A stretch of DNA of 64,000 bases, taken from the NCBI GenBank assembly GCA_041665025.1, contig JBAYJP010000002.1:128691-192690 (forward strand), read 5' to 3'. How positions within the stretch are numbered: the stretch's first letter is position 1; the number at the start of each line of letters is the position of its first letter. Positions 4,003 to 59,160 of this stretch are shown piece after piece. Source of the DNA: Candidatus Magasanikiibacteriota bacterium. GTDB lineage: Bacteria; Patescibacteriota; Patescibacteriia; Magasanikbacterales; UBA922. The notes beneath the pieces are model-generated. The model searched no databases and was not told the DNA's origin. It saw only the letters and a program-made list of their open reading frames with translations. The position numbers were made by a program, and so were the translations under genes.

Positions 4003-4077
4003 GCGGGCATCATATAATGGTTATTATCCCAGTTTTCCAAACTGGTGACAGGAGTTCGATTCTCCTTGCCCGCTCCA
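4003..4077 (+). tRNA. tRNA-Gly (anticodon UCC) with encoded CCA
   Basis: Manual cloverleaf. Acceptor GCGGGCA/TGCCCGC. D-arm with GG. Anticodon stem CCAGT/ACTGG with loop TTTCCAA (U33, UCC, A37). T-arm AGGAG-TTCGATT-CTCCT. Discriminator T, then CCA. Confidence 0.75.
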
Positions 4078-5658
4078 AGTTGAAAAAACGGTCTGAAAAT
4101 GACTGTTTTTTCTTTTATCTTCGCACAAAACACTTGGTTCTACTCGGGCAATTTTTAAGATTTCGTTTTCAAGCCCGTTCTTCAAAGTGAGGTACGGTTT
4201 TTGTAGTTCAATACTGAGTTTTCCATCTCTAAAATAAAAGTTCTGACCAATGCATTTCAAAATATGCGTTTTGGTTTCAAAGTCCCCATGTTCAAACCAG
4301 TGCTTTGCATATGTAGCAAAATTAAATGTCTTTTCAGTGAGATCAAGCCAGTCGTCTACTCGCGTCTCGGTTTTCCTAATCTCAAGCTCTATTCGCCCCT
4401 TTTCTGACACCAAAGAACTTTTTTGTCCTCTAAATTCTTCTTCCGTTATCATCTCCTTTTTTGCATTTTCAGGAGAGATATACAAATTTATTAAATTATC
4501 TATGCGCCTAAGACAGGAATTATAATTATCTTGAAGGTTGCTGACGATAATGTTTCGGTCATACTCCTCTACAAGATTTTGGTCTCGCAAGACTTGAATT
4601 GCCCAGTGTAAAAATTCCTCTGGGATAGTAATACTGTCTAAGTAATCAGTTACTTGTTTTAACAATGCACTATGTTCTATAGATTTTTGATGACACTCAA
4701 TATCCCTGCGATTATGTGAGCAGTGGTGGTAAAGATACTGTTTAATTTTTCCGGTTGTTTTATTTTTCTTATGTTTTTCTTCGGCGACGATCATTCCTCC
4801 ACACTCTGCGCATTTAATCACTCCGCTAAATGGTAACCTCTTATTTTTTGGCCGCGGTTTACCCTTTTTACCCAAAATGGTCTGTGCCAAATCAAATTCT
4901 TCTTTTGTTATCATTGGTTTGTGTTTACCTTGATAAATCGTACTCTTGTACATAAATTCGCCACAATAAAACATATTATTAAGCATTTTGTAGGTTCCAT
5001 TAACACTCATCTTTTTGCCTTCTGATGTTCTTAAACCCCATTCTTCTGTGGCTATTCTTTTAATCTGCATTACTGAGTAGTTATCCGTTAGAAGTAAATC
5101 CCACATTTTTCTAACTAAAGAGAAACGCTCTTGATCTACGAATACAACTTTATTCCCTTTTTCTCCGAACTTGTCATTCAAGTAACCAATCGGGGCTTTA
5201 CCTGGCCGCCAACCCTTTTCTACCTTAGACTTCATACCGCGTGTAACATCTTTACTTAGGTCAATAATAAACTGATTTGCCATGCCAAGCTCTACTGCCA
5301 TCATAAGTACATTATCTGTCGGCAAATACTCACGCCCCGGGGTTATAATTGATTTCATCACCTCTTGCTGAAGTAACCACTGTATTTCCCCTCCATCCAC
5401 TGGATTTCGCGACAAACGATTGAGCTTCCAACAGATGATCGCGTCGGCTTGTCCACTCTTCAGCATGGCCATCATTTCGTTATACATCGGTCTTCCGGGC
5501 TGTTTGGCTGATTTTGACTCGCCGAATGTCTTAACAACATTTAGCCCCCTACGGGTAACTTCATATGCCAATTCGCGTCGTTGGTCTTCAATTGATTGAA
5601 CCTGACGATCTTCTGCATCGGTAGATTTTCTCAAATACATGATATATCGTAATTTCAT
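4024..5658 (-). CDS. Large serine recombinase (resolvase-type N-terminal catalytic domain, recombinase domain, zinc ribbon, coiled coil). Its 3' end overlaps the tRNA-Gly 3' half.
   Basis: N-terminal MYLRKSTDAEDRQ is the serine-recombinase catalytic Ser motif. Cys cluster CAECGG..HHCSH. 544 aa, typical size of large serine integrases. The ORF reads through tRNA positions 4024-4077. Confidence 0.85.
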   Translation of the reverse strand: MKLRYIMYLRKSTDAEDRQVQSIEDQRRELAYEVTRRGLNVVKTFGESKSAKQPGRPMYNEMMAMLKSGQADAIICWKLNRLSRNPVDGGEIQWLLQQEVMKSIITPGREYLPTDNVLMMAVELGMANQFIIDLSKDVTRGMKSKVEKGWRPGKAPIGYLNDKFGEKGNKVVFVDQERFSLVRKMWDLLLTDNYSVMQIKRIATEEWGLRTSEGKKMSVNGTYKMLNNMFYCGEFMYKSTIYQGKHKPMITKEEFDLAQTILGKKGKPRPKNKRLPFSGVIKCAECGGMIVAEEKHKKNKTTGKIKQYLYHHCSHNRRDIECHQKSIEHSALLKQVTDYLDSITIPEEFLHWAIQVLRDQNLVEEYDRNIIVSNLQDNYNSCLRRIDNLINLYISPENAKKEMITEEEFRGQKSSLVSEKGRIELEIRKTETRVDDWLDLTEKTFNFATYAKHWFEHGDFETKTHILKCIGQNFYFRDGKLSIELQKPYLTLKNGLENEILKIARVEPSVLCEDKRKNSHFQTVFSTWSGQGESNSCHQFGKLG

Positions 5659-8338: not shown

Positions 8339-8516
8339 AATAATTTTACTTATATATTACGCCTTTACATTGTAAGTTACAATGTTTTAATCATTATAAC
8401 AATTGTCTAATTACAACCACTGAAAAATTACGCTTGGAACTTGATTTCTGGCCCAAAATGATATAGTATTAAGTGGACAACTTAAGACCTAAACCCGTCT
8501 CGGGCATGGTCAAAAA

Positions 8517-8635
8517 CACTGCACAAACATAGAGATGGCTATTCCGTCTCTGGCATTGTTTGTGCAGTCAGTAGCCGAAAGGTTACTGGGTTCCGAAAGG
8601 GACCGCCAGTGTACGGGTAGCCTTTTTTGTTTTCC
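8517..8635 (+). promoter_or_regulatory. Structured leader with an intrinsic-terminator-like T-run directly upstream of a secreted-protein gene (candidate attenuator / cis-regulatory RNA)
   Basis: Perfect 12-bp inverted repeat ACTGCACAAACA...TGTTTGTGCAGT (8517-8568) enclosing a second stem. Two CCGAAAGG motifs. GGGTAGCC followed by TTTTTTGTTTT (8621-8635). The gene starts at 8652/8661. Confidence 0.4.
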
Positions 8636-11689: not shown

Positions 11690-11770
11690 AATAGTTCTGA
11701 CGTCTTTCACTAATTAAGCTCTCGTTAAAACTTCGCTTAACAAGCGTAGTTTTTTGTTTACCCTTACGTG
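11690..11770 (+). repeat. Copy 1 of a repeated sRNA-3'/terminator module
   Basis: GTTCTGACGTCTTTCACTAATTAAGCTCTCGTTAAAACTTCGCTTAACAAGCGTAGTTTTTTGTTTACC matches 14660-14735 and 16446-16490. Confidence 0.5.
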
Positions 11771-11795
11771 TGAGTAGAACAAGGCAGTAAAACTA

Positions 11796-11824
11796 TTGAC
11801 AAAAAGGAGATTTTATGCTATACT
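11796..11824 (+). promoter_or_regulatory. Consensus sigma70-type promoter reading into the GC-rich cassette
   Basis: TTGACA-N17-TATACT in AT-rich DNA. A structured leader (inverted repeats) follows, then the GGAGAGG RBS of the first GC-rich ORF. Confidence 0.6.
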
Positions 11825-11989
11825 TTTCGGTTCGATTATAATTCGAACTGTGCTCTTTTTAGCAAAAAATTAGATTAAAAAGACTTGGGTCACAAGAGAA
11901 CTAAATTATTTTAGTTTTGTTTTGACCCAGGTCTCGTTTGCTTGGTTGCGACGAGACTCCGAGACGGATAACACGGAGAGGTGATACCG

Positions 11990-13045
11990 ATGGACCGCAC
12001 CGAACTGACCACCCTCGCCACCCGCCTGCTCAACCCCATCGCCGGCCTGCACAAGCAGGTGATCGCCAGCTTCGACACCCCCCAGGTGGGCCCGTACCAC
12101 CAGGAGGGGAACTACCTGGTCGACCACCTCATCCGAATGTTCAACGAGTGGAGACGCCTCGCCGGCAGACCCGAGATGTCCGAGGTCCTCGAGGTCGCCC
12201 TCAACCAGGTCGAGTACCACATCGAAAACGGTGAGGACCTCATCGCCCTCTACATCGTCCTCCACGACGCGTGGAAGGGTGACGAGGTGATGCAGGTGAA
12301 GCTCGACGGTCTGCCCGAGATGACCATGACGCGCAAGTCCTGGGCCAAGTGGGTCAAGACCATGGGCTCGCAGGACAAGGACCCCGTCGACATCGCCAAG
12401 GCCAAGGGCATGCTGCAGGTCTCCTACGAAGACCACGCGGAAGTCGCTGCCGTACAGCTTGAGTGCTTCACCGAAACCCTCAAGCTGCCGGAGTGGTTCG
12501 TGCGCGTAGTTCTGCTGCACATGGTGGCCATCCAGCTCGCTCAGGTGAACGTCCCGCTCTACGAGCGGTCGTTCGCCAACCTGCCCGAGGAGGCCTGGCA
12601 GTTCCTGACGGTCGTGACCTGGCTCGACGCTCAGGGTGCGGTCGGGGAAGACGGCAACTGCAACATCTCCGGCTGGAACAACCTCATCTCGTCCAAGTGG
12701 GCCGCCGAGAGCTACAGGCGCGTCGAGCGCGCCATCAGGAAGGCGGACCGACTGGACGGGCAGAAGATGGAGCGCGCTCTGTCCGATCTGCGCAATTCGC
12801 ACGACATCTTCCACAACGAGACGCCGGATGAGTCCATCGACCGCCTGAAGCGCGAGTGCGCGCTGCCCAAGGTCACGGAGGCTGACGTCCGCAACGCGCT
12901 GGCCAACATCGAGGGCCTGGGCGAAGCGCTCATCGCGACCATCGCGGCCGAGATGGCCACGGACGGCAAGCTGAGCCCGGACACGGGCAGGGCGCTCGGC
13001 CGGTTCAACAAGCCGGTCCGCGACGCGCTCAAGAGCCTCGGCTGA
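11990..13045 (+). CDS. HD-motif (LHDxxK) putative metal-dependent phosphohydrolase encoded in very GC-rich foreign DNA. ATG at 11990 is preferred to the GTG at 11981.
   Basis: GPYHQEG...YIVLHDAWKGDE resembles HD-domain His / His-Asp motifs. Strong codon bias. RBS GGAGAGG 7 nt upstream. Confidence 0.6.
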   Translation: MDRTELTTLATRLLNPIAGLHKQVIASFDTPQVGPYHQEGNYLVDHLIRMFNEWRRLAGRPEMSEVLEVALNQVEYHIENGEDLIALYIVLHDAWKGDEVMQVKLDGLPEMTMTRKSWAKWVKTMGSQDKDPVDIAKAKGMLQVSYEDHAEVAAVQLECFTETLKLPEWFVRVVLLHMVAIQLAQVNVPLYERSFANLPEEAWQFLTVVTWLDAQGAVGEDGNCNISGWNNLISSKWAAESYRRVERAIRKADRLDGQKMERALSDLRNSHDIFHNETPDESIDRLKRECALPKVTEADVRNALANIEGLGEALIATIAAEMATDGKLSPDTGRALGRFNKPVRDALKSLG

Positions 13046-13187
13046 CGACCACAACCCCGAACCCCGGGCGAAAGGGGTGACAGTTCGGAAAGACGGACAA
13101 CTCTCGTGTGTCGCGTACGTTCGTACGTAGTGCGATAGTCGAGGAAATACGCGCGGGGAGCTGGATGCAAAAGCGTTCAGCACCCCG

Positions 13188-13255
13188 TGGATTTTCCGGT
13201 GAGACCGGAACTGATGAGTCCTTTAACGATAGAATACGACAGGACGAAATCCAAA
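13188..13255 (+). ncRNA. Type III hammerhead ribozyme (HH1)
   Basis: GGAU-U|UUCCGG-UGAGA-CCGGAA-CUGAUGA-GUCC-(20 nt loop)-GGAC-GAAA-UCC. Full conserved core. Predicted cleavage after 13194. Confidence 0.8.
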
Positions 13256-13407
13256 AACTGTTCTTTACAATTCGACATGGTTCTTAAATAAAAAAACGGA
13301 CGTGGGTCAACACATGGCCAGGAGTTCTCCTGGACAGATGGACCCCACGTCCGGAGGTTTTGGTCAACCACCGGATGAACTTCGAACGCACACACGGAGG
13401 TGCACTC

Positions 13408-14373
13408 ATGACCCAGTTCACGAATGCGGTGACGCACAGCGGCGACATGCACCCGGACGACGTCATGGCGGGTGGCTTCCTCAAGGAGACCAACCCCGGC
13501 ATCCGCTTCGTCCGCACCCGCGACAAGACCGTGCTCGAGGCGGCGATGTCCGACGACGACACCGTCGTCTACGACGTCGGCTTCGTGTACGACGAGTCGC
13601 GGAACTGCTACGACCACCACCAGCGGCAGAACGCCCCCAACCCCCGCCCGAACGGCGTGCCGTTCTCGAGCTTCGGGCTCCTGTGGCAGCGCTTCGGCCT
13701 GTCCTACTGCGAGCGCCTCGTGGCCAAGTACGGCAAGGACATCGACCCCGCCCAACTCCACGAGCTCATCGACCACGAGCTGGTCCAGGGCATCGACGTC
13801 ATCGACACCGGCGCGGTGGACAACCCCCGCTTCCAGCCGAAGGTCGGCGAGGTGTCCGTCGAGGTCAAGACCTTCGCGCTGGCCCTGTTCGAGCTCGCCC
13901 CCCAGCCGCTCCTGTTCGAGATCCCGCCTTACGACGAGGCCTACAACCAGGCCACCGACATCGCCGCGGTCTTCCTGAACCGCTTCGCCGAGGCCTGCCT
14001 GGCCAAGCTCTGCGGGCGTCAGCTTCTCGTGACCGGCCGCCGGGTCGAGGAGTGCGTCGTCGTGTCGCCCAAGGTCATCCCGGACTGGAGCGACGTCGTC
14101 AGCGCGGAGTTCCCCGAGACCCTCTACTACCTCGAGCCGGACACCAACGACCAGACGGGCAAGGCCTACATGCTGTGGCAGGTGCCCGTCGAGCCGCGGG
14201 GCTTCGTCGGCCGCAAGTCGCTCCCGGAGAGCTGGGCCGGCAAGCGCGGCACGGACCTCGTGGCCGTGACCGGCATCGAGGGCTCGGGCTTCTGCCACGT
14301 CGGGTGCTTCGTGGGCGGCGGCGAGACCCTCGAGGCGACGCTCGCGATGGCGAAGGCGGCCATCGCGGCGTAG
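13408..14373 (+). CDS. MYG1/UPF0160-family metal-dependent hydrolase homologue (GC-rich foreign gene)
   Basis: N-terminal THSGDMHPDDVMAGGFL and YDHHQ motifs recalled as the MYG1 signature. Start taken at MTQFTNAV (13408). Confidence 0.7.
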   Translation: MTQFTNAVTHSGDMHPDDVMAGGFLKETNPGIRFVRTRDKTVLEAAMSDDDTVVYDVGFVYDESRNCYDHHQRQNAPNPRPNGVPFSSFGLLWQRFGLSYCERLVAKYGKDIDPAQLHELIDHELVQGIDVIDTGAVDNPRFQPKVGEVSVEVKTFALALFELAPQPLLFEIPPYDEAYNQATDIAAVFLNRFAEACLAKLCGRQLLVTGRRVEECVVVSPKVIPDWSDVVSAEFPETLYYLEPDTNDQTGKAYMLWQVPVEPRGFVGRKSLPESWAGKRGTDLVAVTGIEGSGFCHVGCFVGGGETLEATLAMAKAAIAA

Positions 14374-14477
14374 CGCGGATCAAATCCGCGCAGAGGACCA
14401 TGTCGGCTACTGATTCAGTCGGCGGCGCAAGCTGCTGAAGGAGTCGTAGACGTCGGGGTGTGTATTTCACGCACCCC

Positions 14478-14538
14478 GGTCCTCTACTGATAATGTCAGT
14501 ACTGATGAGCCCATTTGTTTATGCAGGGCGAAAGGACA
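14478..14538 (+). ncRNA. Type III hammerhead ribozyme (HH2)
   Basis: GGUCCU-C|UACUGA-UAAUG-UCAGUA-CUGAUGA-GCCC-(13 nt loop)-GGGC-GAAA-GGAC. Full conserved core. Predicted cleavage after 14484. Confidence 0.8.
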
Positions 14539-14542
14539 AATT

Positions 14543-14759: not shown

Positions 14760-15548
14760 CTATTTCAAACTATTCCATAGCATTTCCCATACAAACCGTT
14801 GGTTGTCTGCATTTGCTTGGTCTTCAATAATTACTAAGATCATACTGTCCCACGACACGGTCATGACGCGATCACCATAAATGATGGTATGACTTTTGAA
14901 AAATTTCCCATCTGGTAAAAATTTTACATCGCGCAATTCTTCTTTTGCCCGCTTAGCTTCCTGTAAGCCAAATTTAGATTTTTCTACAATTATCCTGGCT
15001 TTTATCCCACGTCTAATTCTTTCCTTAGTAAATTTCTTGTATTCTTCAGGAAAAATCGTTAGAAGTTCGGTTGATGTCCCATAGACCAAATTTTCTTTTT
15101 GGGTCATGTCGTGCCTTATCCTGTCCAAATAGGCCTGCCATACATTTTCTTTACCCTCATAATACAAGACCTTTGGTTTTTTATTTGTTTTATTTTGAAT
15201 GGCACGAAGCTCCGGTAAAAGATTAATAAAAGAAATTTCTTTATCATGTAACGATTGATAAATTTTGTCCGGATCAACTGCTTCCAGCAGTCTTTTTTTA
15301 CCACTCGGCGTTTGTTGAACAAGACCTTTGCTAATAAGATCATCCAAAACATCGTATGTAGACACACGGTGTAGGGATGCTACCTTAGCAATATTTTGTA
15401 CAGGCGCAGGCCCTAATTGTAGACAAGCCAAATAAACCTTAGCTTCTTTTATGCTTAGCCCAAATTCTTGAAGTTGCGTTGGAGTAATCATAGATGTTGT
15501 AGAGAAAATACTACATTTTAGTATATAACAATACCAACAATTAATCAA
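14760..15548 (-). CDS. TrmB-like winged-helix transcriptional regulator (paralogue 1 of 3)
   Basis: N-terminus LQEFGLSIKEAKVYLACLQLGPAPVQNIAKVASLHRVSTYDVLDDLISKGLV is the TrmB HTH signature. Confidence 0.7.
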   Translation of the reverse strand: MINCWYCYILKCSIFSTTSMITPTQLQEFGLSIKEAKVYLACLQLGPAPVQNIAKVASLHRVSTYDVLDDLISKGLVQQTPSGKKRLLEAVDPDKIYQSLHDKEISFINLLPELRAIQNKTNKKPKVLYYEGKENVWQAYLDRIRHDMTQKENLVYGTSTELLTIFPEEYKKFTKERIRRGIKARIIVEKSKFGLQEAKRAKEELRDVKFLPDGKFFKSHTIIYGDRVMTVSWDSMILVIIEDQANADNQRFVWEMLWNSLK

Positions 15549-27848: not shown

Positions 27849-28616
27849 CTATTCAATGGGCAAAGAATCCTCCCATACCGAATCCCACATTGCTTTCATA
27901 CTTTGACTAAAGGATTTATTATGCACCAAAAAACCAAACATCTCCGGTAAAAAATTAATAAAGATAACCATATCATCGACAATGGTAATCATGACACTAT
28001 TTTTTCCTCTCAACTTTTCTGGCGCTAGACGTACGTTCCATAACATCTTTTTAAATTCAGAAATTGTCTTATCTGCAGGTTTATCGTGCAATATACTATA
28101 ATTCACAATTCCCTTTCTTACTCTTTTTTTTAAGAAATTTCTGATATACACATTCTCTTCTGTTTCCATGTACTTAAATAGAACCCCAAAAGTATAAATA
28201 ACTTTCGACGTGGACAAAAATATCTTCTCCATTAAGTTTTTTAGATTTTCCAAACCATAATAGTACTCTATATATGGCGCATGTTGTATATCATCAAAAA
28301 CCGATGGGAAAGAGGAAATAGACTCCTGAATTTTTTCTTTCAAACCAACAATCTCTTCTTGTTTTCTTTCGAGTATTGAAACAAGCTGTTGTGGGGGTTG
28401 CGACTTAAACTTTTCCACCTTAGAGCCTGCAGAAATCATTAGCCCTTTATCAACGAGCAACCTAAGAGTGTGATAGACGCTTGAACGTTTTAACCCTGCC
28501 GCTTGAGCTACCTGTCCTGCGGTCAAATAATTCTTTTGCATTGCCTTTAAATATACCTTTGTCTCAACCTCTGATAAACCAAAAGATTGTAGTAATTGTG
28601 TAATTTCCATATACAA
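27849..28616 (-). CDS. TrmB-like transcriptional regulator (paralogue 2 of 3)
   Basis: LQSFGLSEVETKVYLKAMQKNYLTAGQVAQAAGLKRSSVYHTLRLLVDKGLM. Confidence 0.7.
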   Translation of the reverse strand: MYMEITQLLQSFGLSEVETKVYLKAMQKNYLTAGQVAQAAGLKRSSVYHTLRLLVDKGLMISAGSKVEKFKSQPPQQLVSILERKQEEIVGLKEKIQESISSFPSVFDDIQHAPYIEYYYGLENLKNLMEKIFLSTSKVIYTFGVLFKYMETEENVYIRNFLKKRVRKGIVNYSILHDKPADKTISEFKKMLWNVRLAPEKLRGKNSVMITIVDDMVIFINFLPEMFGFLVHNKSFSQSMKAMWDSVWEDSLPIE

Positions 28617-28812
28617 CCATATTATAAACTAATCATATATTTGTCAACTATCATCAACAAATATTTTTTTATTTTAAAATAATACCAAATAATTTATACA
28701 AAAAATGAATAGCACACAACTAGACATAAAATTCAAAAAGGCTAATATATAAAATGAAAATCCTGGCTCTGACCTAATCGATGAGACATGCGCGGCACAA
28801 AAAAGGAGAAAA

Positions 28813-29165
28813 TGATGATCGGATTTCCCGAGGAAGACTTCTCAGAGAGAGCTACTCGAAGTTCGATAACACTCCGAGACAAAGAGATGTGGGAAAGGGT
28901 AATCAAACGGAACTCAAGCGACTTCTTCTCTGCGACCGTTGTCTGTTTTGCAGCTGTCTGGGCGGAACAGATGGAAGCGTGTATCGCTATAGGAGAAAAT
29001 GTTGAACAGTGCGCCCGCAAAGCCAAAGAAATAGCTATGGAAATGAGTCCTTTTTTCTCTGGTATGACTGGGCAGATGGTCGGGTATGCAGCAAATATTC
29101 TGGTAGGCGTCTGGATTCACGGGCAGGAGCTTAGGTCTTGGTACAAGGGTGAATACCAGGTCTGA
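28813..29165 (+). CDS. Hypothetical protein (moderately GC-enriched)
   Basis: RBS AAGGAGAAA then ATGATG. 117 aa. No recognised family. Confidence 0.4.
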
Positions 29166-29316
29166 GATGAGCCATAAAAAGGAGGAAAGGAGGGGATCAA
29201 CTCTCGTACGAGTGAGAACAAAAAATCATGCCATATTGGCTGGTTTTTTGTTTATAAATTGTTATGTGATACGTGCGCTATGATACGTATAAAATTGTAT
29301 ACACTATCCTACACAT

Positions 29317-29362
29317 GTGGATAACCTTGTGGAAAATAGACTATTACTGTGGATATCTTTGA
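29317..29362. promoter_or_regulatory. Cluster of three DnaA-box-like 9-mers
   Basis: TGTGGATAA (perfect reverse complement of TTATCCACA), TGTGGAAAA and TGTGGATAT within 45 bp. Confidence 0.45.
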
Positions 29363-29452
29363 CCTTACAGATGTATAAACTAATCTATACAAATATACTT
29401 TTTGGCTTAAATTAGCCAATTTTAAATTAAAAAATAACAAAAAACCTTACAG

Positions 29453-29481
29453 TTGACACGTTTTTCAAATCATGCTATAAT
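29453..29481 (+). promoter_or_regulatory. Perfect consensus sigma70 promoter of the ncRNA candidate
   Basis: TTGACA-N17-TATAAT. Confidence 0.65.
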
Positions 29482-29487
29482 GAATAT

Positions 29488-29823
29488 GTGATCATTTCAT
29501 TGTCCCGATACTATCGGGACCTACACCCTTCTTAACTGCTCTCCATATAATGTAGCTTCGGCTACATTCAAAAACAAACATCAAACGAACATAGGTGACC
29601 TCACCCATTACAGATTCGCAGTACCCCTGCTGATCTGCCCGAGGCTTCCACCATTGAGCGGTAGAGGGTTTTGATCCCAGGTTTTCCTGGCCTTTCTCAA
29701 GCATTTGAGTACTATAGTATATACTTCTATAGTATTGAAACGCTTGAGGAAAACCGGACTCTGGGATTAATAAGAGGCTTCCAGCCACCTTATTACCCAG
29801 GGCGAACGGACGCCTCTTTTTTT
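29488..29823 (+). ncRNA. Candidate approximately 335-nt highly structured non-coding RNA (family unassigned)
   Basis: Bounded by the consensus promoter and a GAGGC..GCCTC hairpin plus T7 run. Hairpins include GTCCCGA-TACTA-TCGGGAC, AATGTAGC-UUCG-GCTACATT (UUCG tetraloop), CCAGG-TTTT-CCTGG, CTCAAGC..GCTTGAG and CTGGGATTAATAAG..CTTATTACCCAG. Repeated GAGGCTTCCA motif. The only ORF is antisense and has no RBS. Confidence 0.5.
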
Positions 29824-30005
29824 ATTCTCCAAACTTACGGGTAATCCTGATTTACTGATGAAAATGCCCAAAATCCGTAAATTACGGATAACCTGTAAGA
29901 TGTTATTAACAACATTATTCACACATAGCCCCTCTGAGCTTGATAAAATGATTCAATTCACATATACTTACTGTGTTTTTTATGAATTTGAGGCTAAATA
30001 ATTGT

Positions 30006-30401
30006 ATGACTAAACAAGTAATACATCTCAGTCAGGAATTTCTCGACAAAGTAAAAACGATCTTGTTGGAAGAAAAAACCAAACTTGAGAACGAATTAAA
30101 CAAATTTACAGAAAAAAATCCTCATACTACAGAGGAGGATTTTGATGCAGTCTATCCTGACTATGGAGACAAAAGCGATGAAAACGCCCAAGAAATTACT
30201 GATTTCCTGGCAAACAAACCGCTTGAAATGAATTTGGAAAAGACGTTACGAGATATTAACAAAGCTCTTGAGAGTATCCAAAAGGGCACATATGGTACTT
30301 GCAAGTATTGCAAAGAGCCAATTGATGAGAAACGCTTAATTGCCCGACCAACTTCAAGTGCATGCATTAGTTGCAAAAAAACACTCACTCAAGAAGCTTA
30401 A
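30006..30401 (+). CDS. DksA/TraR-family C4 zinc-finger protein
   Basis: CKYCKEPIDEKRLIARPTSSACISCKK. Confidence 0.75.
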   Translation: MTKQVIHLSQEFLDKVKTILLEEKTKLENELNKFTEKNPHTTEEDFDAVYPDYGDKSDENAQEITDFLANKPLEMNLEKTLRDINKALESIQKGTYGTCKYCKEPIDEKRLIARPTSSACISCKKTLTQEA

Positions 30402-40600: not shown

Positions 40601-41737
40601 CTATTGTCGTATCGGCATCACAATATACAAATATTCTTTTTTATTTTTTGGTCTAAAGATACATGGTGCATCAGCGCTATTTACCCCAAACTCGATTTCT
40701 TCTGTTTCCATATGTTGCAAACCATCAAGTACATACCTATGATTGAGTAGTATTGAATTTTCTTCTCCATTTATCTCTACATCGACATCAGACGTGTGTT
40801 CACCTGTTTGGGTACTTGTAGAAGATACACCAATGTTTCCTTGTGAAACATTGAGATCAAATGAAACCGCGTTGACGCCTGTGGTGGTAAACAAACTTGC
40901 GGCCTTTATTTTATTTACCATGATATCGCGACTAAATACCGCGGTTGTCTTAAATTTTTCTGGAATAATCTGGGTGTAATCTGGATATTTTCCGTCTACG
41001 AGCCGACTTACCATTTCAAAATTATCGTAGCGTATTCCAATTTGATTTTCGCTTATCCAAAGCCTCACGCTTTCTTCCCCTTCTTGATTTTTTCCAAGCT
41101 GGAGCAAACGACTTATTTCATATGCAACTTTTGCCGGTATAATACATCGGACGTCTTTATCTTTGCCTTGTTTAAGCGGTACACGTGATTCTGCCAGACG
41201 ATATGAATCTGTGGCTGCCATGATTACACCCTCAAAACGATCACTTAAAAATTGAAAACAGATACCTGAAAGCTCGGGACGTATTTCGTTTTTTGCAACA
41301 GCGATAACTGTTTTACTTATTCCATTTCTAAATTCTTCAGCACCTACGGTGTATGCATGCTCTTCTTCAAGGGCGGGAATGAGAGGATATTCTTCGGCAG
41401 AAGATCCTTTTATTTTGGTACTAGAACTTCCACACACTAGATGAAGTTCATTTTCTTGCAACTCTATTTCAACTTGTTCATTGTTGAGCAGATGTACATA
41501 GTCTGCCAAAGTCTTTGCTGGAACAGTAAACGAGCCTCCCTGTTCTACTTTTGCGCGAAGTTGAGCCCGGATACCAATTTCAAGATTTGTCGCGCTTACC
41601 TCCACGCCCGAGTCTTGTGCTTTGAGTAAAATATTACCCAGGATTGGCAAGTTTGCGTGCTTGCTCGCAAGAGGACTTACCAAATCAAGTATATAAACTA
41701 GATTCTCCCTTGTGCATGTGAACTTCATATGCGCCAC
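40601..41737 (-). CDS. dnaN: DNA polymerase III beta sliding clamp
   Basis: Three-domain 378-aa protein immediately downstream of dnaA. Confidence 0.85.
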   Translation of the reverse strand: MAHMKFTCTRENLVYILDLVSPLASKHANLPILGNILLKAQDSGVEVSATNLEIGIRAQLRAKVEQGGSFTVPAKTLADYVHLLNNEQVEIELQENELHLVCGSSSTKIKGSSAEEYPLIPALEEEHAYTVGAEEFRNGISKTVIAVAKNEIRPELSGICFQFLSDRFEGVIMAATDSYRLAESRVPLKQGKDKDVRCIIPAKVAYEISRLLQLGKNQEGEESVRLWISENQIGIRYDNFEMVSRLVDGKYPDYTQIIPEKFKTTAVFSRDIMVNKIKAASLFTTTGVNAVSFDLNVSQGNIGVSSTSTQTGEHTSDVDVEINGEENSILLNHRYVLDGLQHMETEEIEFGVNSADAPCIFRPKNKKEYLYIVMPIRQ

Positions 41738-42098: not shown

Positions 42099-43496
42099 TT
42101 AGATTTTATTTGCGTATAATCTTTGTTTTATAAGTTCTATATCTTGTTTTAGTTTTAGGTCATTTTCAATTTCCAAAGAAATTTTTGTGTGTGCGTGCAT
42201 TGCTGTTGTGTGGTCTCGTCCGCCAAGTTCGTCTCCAATAGAGGGATACGAAAGTTTTAGTTCTTCACGCAACAGGTACATGATAATTTGTCTGGGGAAC
42301 GCGAGTCTCTTTTCTCTGCTTTTTCCAAGTACGTCGGGAGTTTGGATGTCATAAAACGTGGAAATTTCTTGTATGAGTTCGCGCGGTGTGAGCGAACGTC
42401 GCATATGTTGTTCTTCAAAACTGGTAAGCAGTTGGCGTAAGGATTCTTCGGTTGGTTGAACATTTTTTAGATCATGGTACGCAATAATTTTATTAAGAGC
42501 TCCTTCAAGTTCACGAATATTATTTTGCACATGTGTTGCGATATATTGCAACATGTCGCGTGATATAGAAAATTGGTGTTCCTGAGCTTTCTTTTCGAGA
42601 ATTGCGATGCGAGTTTCAAGATCTGGCGCTGAAATATCAGCAATCATTCCCCACTCCAGTCTGCTGCGCAAGCGATCCTCGAGGGCTGGAATTGCTTTTG
42701 GTGGACGGTCGCTCGTTAATACAATTTGTTTTCCTTGCTGGTGTAATTCGTTGAATGTGTGAAAAAATTCTTCCTGAGTTTGTTCTTTTCCGCCGATGAA
42801 TTGGATGTCATCAATAAGCAACAAATCAACATTGCGGTAGCGGTCTTTGAATTCTTTTGCGCGCCCTTCTTTTACTGATGACACAAACTCATTGGTAAAT
42901 TTTTCTGATGAAACGTATAATATTTTAGTTTGTGGATTGGCTTCAAGCATGGCGTGGCCAATTCCTTGAATAAGGTGTGTTTTGCCCAAACCAACACCAC
43001 CATATATAAATAATGGGTTGTAAGCTTCTCCGGGACGAGAGGCGACTGCTTGAGCGGCGGCATGTGCGAGTTCATTTCCTTTGCCGACCACAAATGTACT
43101 AAATGTATATTTTGGGTTGAGGCCAAACTGTTGTGCGAGTGTTTGTTTCCGCTGAGGAGTGTAAAGGGGTGTGTTGATCGTAGAGATTTTTGGTTGCTCA
43201 GTAGAAGGAGTACATTCTTGTTCTTTGATATTTTTGAGATTATCAACCATGTAATCAATTTTGCGAATTGGTTTGCCGGTGACGCGTTCGAGAATCTGTA
43301 CAATTTTTGCGTGATATTTTTTTTCAAGCCAGCTTTTGGTAAATGCATTGGGTACACATACTGCTACTTGTCCGTTATCGTATTTTGCAATTCCTGTGCT
43401 TTTGAACCATGTAGTAAAGTTTGCTTTGGATAATGAGAGTTCAAATTCTGCCAAAACAGCCTGCCAGATTTCGTAATTAGTCATATTTTGAAACAC
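42099..43496 (-). CDS. dnaA: Chromosomal replication initiator DnaA
   Basis: AAA+ Walker A GGVGLGKTHL, sensor motifs, and a C-terminal DnaA-box-binding domain. Confidence 0.95.
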   Translation of the reverse strand: MFQNMTNYEIWQAVLAEFELSLSKANFTTWFKSTGIAKYDNGQVAVCVPNAFTKSWLEKKYHAKIVQILERVTGKPIRKIDYMVDNLKNIKEQECTPSTEQPKISTINTPLYTPQRKQTLAQQFGLNPKYTFSTFVVGKGNELAHAAAQAVASRPGEAYNPLFIYGGVGLGKTHLIQGIGHAMLEANPQTKILYVSSEKFTNEFVSSVKEGRAKEFKDRYRNVDLLLIDDIQFIGGKEQTQEEFFHTFNELHQQGKQIVLTSDRPPKAIPALEDRLRSRLEWGMIADISAPDLETRIAILEKKAQEHQFSISRDMLQYIATHVQNNIRELEGALNKIIAYHDLKNVQPTEESLRQLLTSFEEQHMRRSLTPRELIQEISTFYDIQTPDVLGKSREKRLAFPRQIIMYLLREELKLSYPSIGDELGGRDHTTAMHAHTKISLEIENDLKLKQDIELIKQRLYANKI

Positions 43497-43778
43497 AGAT
43501 TAGGGACAGATAACACAGATTCTTTTGTTTTTCATTAGTTAATACATTCTATCATATATTAATAATTTAAAAAATCCTCTAAATTAAGGCAAAAGTGCAT
43601 AGAGTGTGGAAAAGCTGTGGATGGTGGGGATAACGTTGACACTTAAGCACGGCAGCACTTAAACTCTTGAGCACCTATATTGACATTTTACAAAAGTTTA
43701 GGTATACTTGTTTCATTCTTATTTATTTTTAAAGTTTGTGCTTAAGTGCTATTGTGCTTAAGTGCTATTGTGAAATGT
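43497..43778. promoter_or_regulatory. Divergent dnaA/rpmH promoter region with a DnaA-box cluster and a palindromic 12-mer repeat
   Basis: AGATAACAC, TGTGGAAAA, TGTGGATGG, GGGATAACG. GCACTTAAGCAC (x2, one orientation) and GTGCTTAAGTGCTATTG x2 direct (43737-43768). Confidence 0.55.
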
Positions 43779-43958
43779 ATGGCAACAAAACGAACATACC
43801 AGCCAAAAAAGCGTAAGAGAGCAAAAACTCATGGTTTTCGATCACGCATGAAGACCAAAGATGGACGTGATGTACTCAAAAGACGCCGAAATAAAGGGAG
43901 AAAGAAGCTTACGGTCAGCGACGAGAAAAAAGGAAAACGAACACGAAAAACACGATAA
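43779..43958 (+). CDS. rpmH: Ribosomal protein L34 with a basic C-terminal extension
   Basis: [46 protein letters not shown]. Confidence 0.85.
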
Positions 43959-44168
43959 AACCTTATAAATAAGCCAAAACTCTCGCCAAAACGGGGGTTT
44001 TGTGTTATTATATTAATAACCAAGGTACAAGAAACCCTAGACCCGGGCCTGAGGGCAAATAAATCTCAAACAATAATCACCAAGATTTTGAATTTGATTA
44101 TTGGAAATTATTTGGAAATTGTATCTTGTGTCCTAGTTTATATGCTTCAACAAATCAACCGGTTAACA

Positions 44169-44519
44169 AGGATGAAGGACTGGGAAATACTCTTTAGAGA
44201 GGGTAAATTTTGTGGTGGGAGGTTTTTGACCGTAAAATACTGGAAAGTACAGCCGGAAAAGTATCCAAAGAGAGATTATACCCAAGATGATTTGAAGATT
44301 GGCTTTGCTGTTGGGTTGAAAATTAGTAAAAGTGCAGTAAAACGCAATAGAGTGAAGCGACAAATGAGAGAAGTTGTTCGGCTTTTGCTAAAAGATGGTA
44401 AGATACATAAAGGGTTTATGGTTGGTGTGCTCGCGAAACCGGAAATTTTGGAGAAAGAATATGAAGATATTGGAAAAGATGTGGTTGAAGTTTTTAGTAG
44501 AGCGCGATTATTAATGTGA
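44169..44519 (+). CDS. rnpA: RNase P protein component
   Basis: Basic RnpA motif region KISKSAVKRNRVKRQMRE. Conserved rpmH-rnpA-yidD synteny. Confidence 0.85.
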   Translation, partial: RMKDWEILFREGKFCGGRFLTVKYWKVQPEKYPKRDYTQDDLKIGFAVGLKISKSAVKRNRVKRQMREVVRLLLKDGKIHKGFMVGVLAKPEILEKEYEDIGKDVVEVFSRARLLM

Positions 44520-58359: not shown

Positions 58360-59160
58360 ATGATTGAACAACTAAAAAATTTAGGTTTGGAAGAAAGCGA
58401 GGTTCAAGTTTATTTAGCCTTGCTTGAGCTTGGGCCCTCCAATGTGAGTGAAATTACTAAAAAGGCCGGTGTCACCCGAACTCTTGGCTATCATGTGCTT
58501 GAAAAATTAGGATGGTATGGACTCGTGGATCAAACCTCAAGCAAAGGAAAGAAAAAAATTTATTCTGCTCAACATCCGCATCGTTTACTTCAATTTGTTA
58601 AAAATAAAAAAAATGTATGGGATAGGAAAGTCAAGGATATAGAAAGCTACTTGCCAAATTTGGTTTCTTTATATAAAATTGCTGACAAGCCAACAGTCCG
58701 GTATCAAATGGGAGACGAAGGGCTAAAAAATATTTATATTGAAAATTTGGAATCAAAAACAGAGATATTATCTATCCTGGATGTTGACGGATGGGACGTG
58801 CCAGAATTTAGACAATTTGGAAAATGGTATATTAGAGAACGTGTTAAGAGAAAGATCCCAGAGAGAATTTTGATGCTCGAACGTGAGTCTGTTCATGAAT
58901 ATTACAATGATCCTTCCAAACTTACTGACTACAAGTGGATTAAATTTTCGCAATTACCTGGGATTTTAGATTTGGGTGGAGAAATTAATATATTTGAGAA
59001 TAAAGTGCTCATTGCAATAACAAAAAAGCCTAATAGGATGGGAATTTTGATTGAAAGTGAAGTTTTGGCGAATTTAATCAGAGCAATGTTCGAACTTGCT
59101 TGGCAAGTTGGTATTCCTGCAGACAGGAAAAGAAAAAAAGTTTTACGTAAAACAAAGTAA
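58360..59160 (+). CDS. TrmB-like transcriptional regulator (paralogue 3 of 3)
   Basis: LKNLGLEESEVQVYLALLELGPSNVSEITKKAGVTRTLGYHVLEKLGWYGLV. Confidence 0.7.
   Translation: MIEQLKNLGLEESEVQVYLALLELGPSNVSEITKKAGVTRTLGYHVLEKLGWYGLVDQTSSKGKKKIYSAQHPHRLLQFVKNKKNVWDRKVKDIESYLPNLVSLYKIADKPTVRYQMGDEGLKNIYIENLESKTEILSILDVDGWDVPEFRQFGKWYIRERVKRKIPERILMLERESVHEYYNDPSKLTDYKWIKFSQLPGILDLGGEINIFENKVLIAITKKPNRMGILIESEVLANLIRAMFELAWQVGIPADRKRKKVLRKTK

Follow-up and report, generated by a model that had tools for sequence, protein, structure and literature searches.

Large orphan RNAs of bacteria such as OLE, ROOL, GOLLD and the raiA motif RNA possess a long multi-helix fold with strong covariation, occur in a narrow range of organisms, carry their own transcription signals, lack coding capacity and have functions that are not deducible from sequence. 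RNase P RNA, transfer-messenger RNA (tmRNA), 6S RNA, riboswitches and OLE, ROOL and GOLLD, of which the assemblies were recently solved, each opened a piece of biology; to our knowledge, new large bacterial RNAs supported by covariation are rare. The ultra-small bacteria of the Candidate Phyla Radiation (CPR, or Patescibacteria) have reduced genomes with little dispensable DNA, and we know of almost no biology of non-coding RNAs (ncRNAs) in this group. Here we describe an RNA gene found in a stretch of 64,000 nucleotides (nt) of Candidatus Magasanikiibacteriota DNA (contig JBAYJP010000002.1 of assembly GCA_041665025.1, positions 128,691 to 192,690; called the window below). It lies between a group of DnaA boxes and a gene that encodes a DksA/YteA-family protein of the RNA-polymerase secondary channel. 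Comparison with its homologues identifies it as a separately transcribed, non-coding and structurally constrained RNA gene, which founds a previously undescribed family among the large orphan bacterial ncRNAs.

The new RNA shares with OLE, ROOL, GOLLD and raiA motif RNA all the features named above, but shows no sequence or structural similarity to them (the Rfam models are silent) and is shorter, with 295-460 nt. Unlike the large orphan RNAs that reside in prophages or beside tRNA genes it occupies a fixed, origin-proximal chromosomal locus, and it alone is preceded by a DnaA-box module; this obligatory module and the proximity to dnaA are the distinguishing feature of the family. The nearest functional analogy may be CcnA of Caulobacter crescentus, an ncRNA that modulates cell-cycle regulators and whose gene, in the origin region, has DnaA boxes in or next to it (PMC8959179). 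CcnA is a CtrA-controlled, base-pairing small RNA (sRNA) of 182 nt from Alphaproteobacteria (PMC8959179), whereas the new RNA is not homologous to it, is twice as long, is conserved in structure, and had no target complementarity that could be found.

With RNase P RNA of types A and B the new RNA has in common a similar size, a gene of the stable-RNA type and rnpA in the neighbourhood, but it is without P1, the P4 pseudoknot and CR-I/CR-V and is not matched by the covariance models. Similar to 6S RNA and Ms1, it is a stand-alone RNA with a very strong promoter, and its gene adjoins that of the DksA/YteA-family protein; it differs from these in having unpaired ends, no rod with a central bubble and no Rfam match. 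In Bacillus, the arrangement ileS leader-ileS-ylyA-lspA is found. Terminator-based leaders such as T-box elements and riboswitches resemble the new RNA in that a structured RNA with an intrinsic terminator is located directly upstream of a ylyA/dksA-like and lspA pair, and some members of the new family have competing pairings near the terminator. In contrast to such leaders, the new RNA is much longer, the downstream gene has its own promoter, and no T-box or riboswitch model matches.

A structured non-coding RNA gene of a new family

The preliminary description of this DNA, made from its letters, proposed a highly structured ncRNA of about 335 nt with a perfect consensus promoter and an intrinsic terminator, and these signals were found again. 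The promoter matches the sigma-70 consensus at 12 of 12 positions, has an extended -10 TG one base before TATAAT and is the sole 12/12 site in a 2-kb scan. The terminator is a composite hairpin followed by T7 at 29817-29823, and the transcript from promoter to terminator comprises about 336 nt (29487/8-29823, + strand). The UUCG-capped stem (AATGTAGC-TTCG-GCTACATT), the raised GC content (the transcript has 45%, the flanking intergenic DNA 32%) and the presence of rnpA in the window (44088-44519, + strand) were also described correctly. The same holds for the triplet of DnaA boxes, 97-137 base pairs (bp) upstream of the -35 hexamer; it had been mentioned in passing, but is in fact a conserved and defining part of the RNA unit. 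The motif GAGGCTTCCA does occur twice (at 29641 and 29774), but the repetition is lost in homologues and is incidental. The antisense open reading frame (ORF) of 98 amino acids at 29492-29788 exists, but is not the only one, as had been thought: a sense ORF of 57 amino acids (29671-29844, +) is also there. The duplicated GAGGCUUCCA was dropped as a feature, being not conserved. The + strand of 29488-29823 folds to -122.6 kcal/mol, as compared to a mean of -77.2 kcal/mol for dinucleotide shuffles (z = -8.76; 0 of 100 shuffles as good). Since the - strand also folds well (z = -6.8), the folding energy alone gives no strand.

The RNA unit was located at 37 loci, all on CPR contigs (Candidatus Magasanikbacteria-like), and 31 distinct RNAs of 295-460 nt, the window included, were obtained. 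In the GTDB species set the closest ComM loci are from Candidatus Magasanikbacteria and Parcubacteria metagenome-assembled genomes (72-79% identity). A search with nhmmer yielded the same RNA in locus L001 at about 70% identity, with promoter, terminator and downstream genes alike, and the equivalent spacers of L008, L074, L006 and L025 have an identical layout with very different sequences. Scanning of JGI metagenome contigs with an exact pattern, consisting of a 20-bp motif and the first DnaA box of the module upstream of the RNA, gave 31 matching loci. All of these harbor a TTGAC(A/T)-type promoter 130-316 bp downstream, and each has a GC-enriched stretch of 300-460 nt with a composite terminator; the promoter has a near-consensus -10 by a strict pattern in 27 loci, and the remaining four have weaker -10 variants that were found by a relaxed pattern or by eye. 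A consensus-type promoter and the terminator are also present in the six genome loci, which were found independently of the module and have the DnaA boxes there too. A more distant member (L068), recognized by the core covariance model, possesses DnaA boxes, an A-rich tract, a composite terminator and the dksA-like gene. The RNA is single-copy in each locus examined. The module pattern is absent from 2.9 million IMG/VR viral contigs, and the RNA unit is chromosomal.

Structural conservation was evident from alignments made with and without a covariance model. RNAalifold applied to a plain MAFFT alignment of 15 core sequences recovers the long-range helix P-LR, the helix P-X, the inner stem of the three-way core and the hairpin. 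In this MAFFT-only alignment (A6), 90.6% standard pairs are found over the 30 pairs recovered, against 37-49% when the 3' partners are shifted by 1-3 columns; double changes occur in 24 of the 30 pairs, and none of 500 column shuffles reaches the observed values. The covariance model R1, built from the trimmed core (132 positions, 31 pairs), matches the window at 24.6 bits (E 0.002-0.006), although the window was absent from its seed, and also recognizes the non-seed members L001, L088, L094, L107, L081 and L084. In an alignment of 24 sequences (A8), which unlike A6 leans towards the covariance model by construction, 89.4% of the cells are paired (38-46% when slid), compensatory double changes are present in 26 of 31 pairs, and all eight P-X pairs covary. 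RNAalifold gave almost nothing with full-length or 3'-half MAFFT alignments due to length variation, whereas alignments of sub-domains and subtypes worked. The helices are thus kept by compensatory mutation while the sequence drifts, as read from these alignments, and the massive covariation among homologues bears out the proposal of a discrete gene for a structured ncRNA, equipped with a promoter and a terminator of its own. Of 661 paired cells, about 91 (ca. 14%) hold G.U pairs, and 22 of the 24 sequences share one U.G pair. Because G.U pairs would be A.C mismatches on the opposite strand, they identify the + strand as the RNA strand, in agreement with promoter and terminator.

At the gathering score, Rfam 15 gave no match at the RNA locus; in other parts of the window it identified six tRNAs and one LOOT RNA. 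At E<=10, only chance hairpin-shaped matches (plant and animal microRNA precursors) appeared in 29300-30000, and in homologous loci (13 searched at the gathering score and 10 more at E<=5) no family was found on the RNA region. ARAGORN detected six tRNAs in the window, all away from the RNA locus, and no tmRNA. The earlier view that the RNA is not tmRNA, RNase P RNA, 6S RNA or signal recognition particle (SRP) RNA agrees with these results; none of the four was found by Rfam at the gathering score in the entire window. Two of the three identities suggested in the preliminary description have to be abandoned: no OLE, ROOL or GOLLD model matched in the window at E<=10 or in the 23 homologous loci (raiA and HEARO models gave no match in window or homologues either), and an unusual RNase P RNA is contradicted by the RNaseP_bact_a and RNaseP_bact_b models, which are silent at the gathering score, at E<=10 in 29300-30000 and in the same 23 loci. 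The third, a new family, is the sole survivor. The sequence GGAAAACCGGACTCTGGG (29748-29765), which had seemed to resemble CR-I, forms the 3' side of the long hairpin, and its conservation does not extend beyond the closest subtype. Of the RNase P hallmarks P1 and P4 (CR-I GAGGAAAGUCC, CR-V ACAGAA..GGCUUA) a CR-V-like string is lacking, and the ends of the RNA do not pair, the 5' end being a local hairpin and the 3' end the terminator. A tag frame as in tmRNA is not present, since the A-rich tract contains stop codons in relatives, and no T-arm/CCA end is conserved in the family alignment. There is also no closing stem formed by the ends and no conserved central bubble as in 6S RNA, nor does the alignment contain a conserved GGAA/AGCA motif of SRP RNA helix 8.

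No Pfam match was obtained for the 98-amino-acid antisense ORF or the 57-amino-acid sense ORF. The former occurs in the window alone and is broken in all homologues, with a longest antisense ORF of 50 amino acids in the closest relative; on neither strand is an ORF conserved, and the longest ORFs of other members are at unrelated positions. From these comparisons the RNA is classed as untranslated. The locus is an annotation gap in which gene callers may place spurious ORFs like the antisense one, and a covariance model would mend this. In the literature searched, no paper was found on ncRNAs of Magasanikbacteria or on peculiarities of 6S or RNase P RNA in Patescibacteria. As far as seen, the family appears to be restricted to Candidatus Magasanikbacteria-like CPR bacteria.

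The arrangement that defines the family is present in the window: helix P-LR encloses both the A-rich tract and the three-way core, and a long hairpin and then a composite terminator come after it (Table 1). The 5'-terminal element has the family form (U)GWUCWUU..AAAA and in relatives is usually a hairpin of 4-5 bp with loop WUCWUU, of which the stems covary (GUUG:CAAC, GUAG:CUAC, GUCG:CGAC). The P-LR helix (CCCUUnUUUACUGCU : AGCGGUAGAAGGG in its family form) includes a near-invariant U.G pair. Helix P-X, which most members have at the position of the UUCG-capped hairpin, encloses variable hairpins; in L001 the counterpart of the UUCG hairpin is a GAAA-capped GAGCGA/UCGCUC stem. The A-rich tract has a consensus of approximately CAAAAACAAAAAUAAAAG, and the bulge of the three-way core reads A-YUUAUG in the family; every pair of the inner stem and hairpin of this core shows double changes. 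In the family architecture a small hairpin precedes the long irregular hairpin. The 3' domain contains inner pairs UCC/GGA and CC/GG and a loop with CCCAG, and its closing stem, which is the terminator, is of the type AAAGGCGG...CCGCCUUU in the family. Four subtypes can be distinguished, which differ at the UUCG-hairpin/P-X position and at the small and long hairpins; one has an internal repeat of an ACUGCU...AGCGGU unit, and the four sequences of the window's subtype retain the long hairpin along with an extended terminator hairpin.

Table 1. Features of the RNA unit and its surroundings in the window
Feature	Position	Strand	Remarks
20-bp motif, copy 1 (TGTATACACTATCCTACACA)	29296..29315	+	TGTATA-N8-TATACA type; probable transcription-factor site
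Three DnaA boxes	29316..29356	+	TGTGGATAA at 29316, TGTGGAAAA at 29328, TGTGGATAT at 29348; one orientation
20-bp motif, copy 2 (TGTATAAACTAATCTATACA)	29372..29391	+	
AT-rich stretch	29392..29452	+	Palindrome TTGGCTTAAATTAGCCAA at 29402-29419; GCTAAAATTAGC type
Consensus promoter TTGACA-N17-TGcTATAAT	29453..29481	+	TTGACA 29453-29458, 17-bp spacer, TATAAT 29476-29481; 12/12 match
Inferred 5' end and conserved 5'-terminal element (U)GUGAUCAUUUCAU	29487..29501	+	Start deduced from -10 position
Hairpin H2 (GUCCCGAUACUAUCGGGAC)	29502..29520	+	Hairpin here in all members, sequences differ
P-LR, 5' strand (CCCUUCUUAACUGCUC)	29526..29541	+	Long-range helix; partner 29656-29668
UUCG-capped hairpin	29549..29568	+	Most other members have long-range helix P-X instead
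Single-stranded A/C-rich tract (CAAAAACAAACAUCAAACGAACAUA)	29569..29593	+	Unpaired in minimum free energy fold, conserved across subtypes
Three-way core	29594..29652	+	GGUG/CACC and CCUC/GAGG stems, bulge ACCCAUUA, hairpin 29611-29637
P-LR, 3' strand (GAGCGGUAGAGGG)	29656..29668	+	Best-conserved sequence of family, GRGYGGUAGAAGGG
Long irregular hairpin	29671..29769	+	Base GAUCCCAG / CUGGGAUU, apex variable
3' domain and intrinsic terminator	29770..29823	+	Closing stem AAGAGGC (29772-29778) with GCCUCUU (29812-29818), inner pairs between, then U7
Separate promoter of downstream dksA/yteA-like gene, TTGATA-N17-TATACT	29940..29968	+	Outside RNA, marks its 3' limit

The DnaA-box module and the replication origin

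The RNA promoter is preceded by a module in the order 20-bp motif, DnaA boxes (two or three), second motif copy and AT-rich stretch. The 20-bp motif (TGTATACAnnAnnCTATACA), of which the ends are palindromic, adjoins the first DnaA box in every related locus; in the 64 kb of the window its two copies are the only ones, and none is expected by chance. It looks like the site of a putative dimeric DNA-binding protein. Paralogous genes for TrmB-family helix-turn-helix regulators, assigned by Pfam, are located at 27849-28616 (-) and 14760-15548 (-), and the ORF at 58360-59160 (+) is a third TrmB-like candidate with a similar N-terminus as seen by eye only; regulators of the TrmB type are candidate binders of the upstream motifs. 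The palindrome in the AT-rich stretch recurs 52-83 bp ahead of the RNA start in 15 of 31 loci, and palindrome or stretch could represent an UP element or regulator site.

With up to one mismatch allowed, the 340 bp preceding the RNA contain 3.06 DnaA boxes per locus (31 RNAs), whereas other parts of these loci have 0.14 per 340 bp. One box per metagenome locus was imposed by the search pattern; the remaining boxes were not. Their spacing is fixed at about -171, -159 and -139 from the RNA start, with the same orientation throughout. An extra box is located 5 bp upstream of the -35 hexamer in five of the 31 RNAs, representing four distinct loci (L008, L095 with its near-duplicate L096, L098 and L099), and in L084 a box lies within the promoter spacer. 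Such a geometry, with boxes beside or inside the promoter, is that of direct control by DnaA, as predicted from their positions.

In the four loci whose sequence reaches dnaA, the RNA unit is 1-14 kb from dnaA/dnaN/rpmH-rnpA. The distance is 11-14 kb in the window, with dnaN at 40601-41737 (-), dnaA at 42099-43496 (-) and rpmH-rnpA on the + strand. In L008 dnaN, dnaA and rnpA are found at +3.6, +5.1 and +6.4 kb from the RNA unit, in L006 rnpA and dnaA are at +6.5 and +7.9 kb, and in L083 the module begins right after rpmH-rnpA; the origin genes of these three loci are 1-8 kb away. The cumulative GC skew of the window has its minimum at 41-44 kb, by dnaN and dnaA and 12-14 kb from the module. 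At this minimum, the dnaA-rpmH spacer (43497-43780) harbors three DnaA boxes, whose 12-bp spacing is that of the boxes at 29316-29336; it also has an AT-rich stretch and two tandem copies of GTGCTTAAGTGCTATTGT, and is the probable canonical oriC.

Proposed function and alternative explanations

The explanation that we favor, and consider somewhat better than an even chance, is that of a stand-alone, trans-acting structured RNA of a new family, encoded close to the origin and probably controlled by DnaA. With a consensus promoter and an efficient terminator, the RNA would accumulate as an abundant and stable transcript, and its action would be in trans, the most likely role being to bind proteins or serve as a scaffold. 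Helices that drift while unpaired strings stay fixed are typical of folded protein-binding particles, not of base-pairing sRNAs, and the contact surfaces may be the conserved unpaired parts, namely the 5'-terminal loop, the A-rich tract, the A-YUUAUG bulge and the GGUAGAAGGG strand. DnaA and the factor recognizing the 20-bp motif would tune transcription, and the level of the RNA could then track the status of replication initiation and the gene dosage near the origin. The DnaA-box module, the constant proximity to dnaA and the consensus promoter offer a testable entry to the coupling of expression and replication in uncultivated episymbionts. Several points weigh against this explanation. The ends of the RNA, its abundance and its stability are deduced from sequence only, and the trans role rests mainly on excluding alternatives. 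The boxes at 100-140 bp upstream of the promoter are far away for simple repression or activation, and the 100% co-occurrence of module and RNA is one-directional in the metagenome loci, the module being the search bait. Furthermore, both the strict dksA-lspA-comM synteny and a second pairing of the hairpin 3' strand with the terminator-domain loop would fit a cis-regulatory element as well.

These last two points lead to the possibility, to which we assign a low probability, that the RNA is a very long cis-acting leader or attenuator, of which the terminator is conditionally bypassed in response to a ligand or protein, which the core would sense, to control the dksA-like gene, lspA and comM. 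In the window, the DksA/YteA-family zinc-finger gene (30006-30401) follows 3' of the RNA, with lspA and comM/yifB next; the dksA-like gene is present in the metagenome loci wherever the contig continues, and in almost every locus it is co-oriented and starts 43-250 nt past the terminator, in keeping with a leader. However, in L107, L091 and L104 other DNA is located between the RNA and dksA/lspA, and in nearly all loci a promoter matching 9-11 of 12 consensus positions is found between the terminator and the start of the dksA-like gene, so that this gene is not reliant on read-through; an attenuation leader, through which alone its gene is transcribed, would leave no place for such an intervening promoter. 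The promoter of the dksA-like gene usually lies 10-25 nt before the ATG and no Shine-Dalgarno sequence is present (29940-30008 in the window and the equivalent spacers of L081-L111), which indicates that dksA/yteA-like messenger RNAs are leaderless or nearly so. A perfect consensus promoter in front of the RNA would also be more typical of stable RNA genes than of leaders. The second pairing joins CUGGG of the long hairpin 3' strand (29761-29765) to CCCAG of the terminator-domain loop (29797-29801), so that the strand has two possible partners, the 5' strand of the hairpin and this loop. The loop contact covaries in some members, with variants CUAAG:CUUAG (L098), CCUUGGGA:UCCCAAGG (L105) and CCUGA:UCAGG (L074), it is the only helix that RNAalifold keeps in the MAFFT alignment of 3' halves, and in L106 it overlaps the inner terminator stem, all of which would suit such a leader. 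An alignment-free duplex test against shuffles with 30 members gave a mean z of -2.1 for hairpin closure (p<0.05 in 63%), but a mean z of only -1.1 for the loop contact (p<0.05 in 27%), which moreover is absent in one subtype and in the window does not overlap the terminator stem, leaving it intact. We interpret the contact as a pseudoknot or alternative conformation that some members may form, rather than as a general antiterminator. Antisense control of the start region of the neighboring dksA-like gene was considered separately and rejected, since self and cross-locus complementarity were indistinguishable. It is likewise unlikely, if slightly less so, that the module with its AT-rich stretch serves as an origin, or half of a bipartite one, with transcription aiding the opening and the RNA helping to control initiation. 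Three co-oriented boxes and then about 70 bp of ca. 80% AT behind a strong outward promoter are suggestive, the RNA unit stays with dnaA/dnaN/rpmH-rnpA through rearrangements, even directly after rnpA in L083, and the ccnA gene of Caulobacter, in an origin region with DnaA boxes, provides a precedent (PMC8959179). Boxes and an AT-rich stretch are present in the module, and the skew at this scale cannot sharply separate 29 kb from 41-44 kb. Nevertheless, with the skew minimum at dnaN/dnaA and boxes and an AT-rich stretch of its own in the dnaA-rpmH spacer, the dnaA region is the better origin candidate; opening of DNA needs no covarying RNA structure, and between the RNA and the AT-rich DNA upstream of it no co-evolution in similarity or complementarity was seen, the own locus ranking at random among the others. 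Pairing of the RNA with this upstream DNA, or copying of it, as in an R-loop or primer, was rejected as well: self and cross-locus scores could not be distinguished. A role as a working part of the replication-initiation or cell-cycle circuitry, feeding back on DnaA or origin firing, is improbable too; if true, the RNA would be, for example, a DnaA- or replisome-binding scaffold whose gene is built into a DnaA-binding module of the origin type, and the control of chromosomal replication would include an RNA, for which no counterpart is known.

Much less credit can be given to a strongly diverged form of a universal housekeeping RNA, i.e. RNase P RNA, tmRNA, 6S RNA or SRP RNA, which we regard as very improbable. 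In its favor, the RNA has a size expected for RNase P RNA, rnpA lies in the vicinity (in L083 it directly precedes the unit), the promoter is strong, and none of the four RNAs was found elsewhere in the 64 kb; but the models are silent in the window (E<=10), in 13 loci at the gathering score and in 10 loci at E<=5, ARAGORN reports no tmRNA, the unpaired 5' and 3' ends leave no P1 or closing stem, and no P4/CR-I/CR-V, T-arm/CCA, central bubble or domain IV motif is conserved. The probability is smaller still, and close to nil, that the locus represents an ornate RNA of the ROOL/GOLLD kind borne by a mobile element or phage, or an antisense protein-coding gene, as the Tad4-like (anti-Thoeris) gene just upstream in the window and the existence of the 98-amino-acid antisense ORF might suggest. 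The Tad4-like gene is not beside the RNA elsewhere, while conservation extends to the core genes downstream of the RNA; none of the 2.9 million viral contigs contains the module, the ROOL, GOLLD and OLE models are silent, and the antisense ORF, for which Pfam gives no match, is broken in every homologue. Locus conservation, the broken ORF and the absence from viral contigs thus largely refute these possibilities.

Neighboring genes and other features

In addition to the downstream genes, the surroundings of the RNA in the window comprise a type IV pilus operon, a methyltransferase gene, the TrmB-like regulator and a Tad4-like ORF. The latter (28788-29165, +; 125 amino acids) matches Pfam Tad4, a type I Thoeris inhibitor (E 2e-15), and has no NCBIfam match; this ORF of a CPR chromosome immediately precedes the DnaA-box module, a position at which it was not found in related loci.

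The Rfam searches also led to RNAs of known families. On the Magasanikbacteria-like metagenome contig L098, two matches to Acido-Lenti-1 RNA (RF01687) above the gathering score are located at 11765-11810 (-) and 12361-12406 (+), which is outside the phyla for which this family is named. The LOOT RNA of the window (RF03000, 81 bits) lies at 8486-8604 (+), 2.8 kb from a gene for a large serine recombinase that abuts tRNA-Gly (coordinates 4003-4077 and 4024-5658), and this position suggests that the LOOT RNA is carried by an integrated element. The window, with an overall GC content of 39%, further contains a 2.4-kb GC island of 60-73% at 12000-14400 (and 14477-14539), which may stem from foreign DNA, from a chimeric assembly or from an unusual element. 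Its long ORFs at 11906-13183 (-) and 13302-14438 (+) have no Pfam match, and at its 3' edge there is a sub-threshold match to the type III hammerhead ribozyme (27.4 bits, E 0.007; gathering score 48.5).

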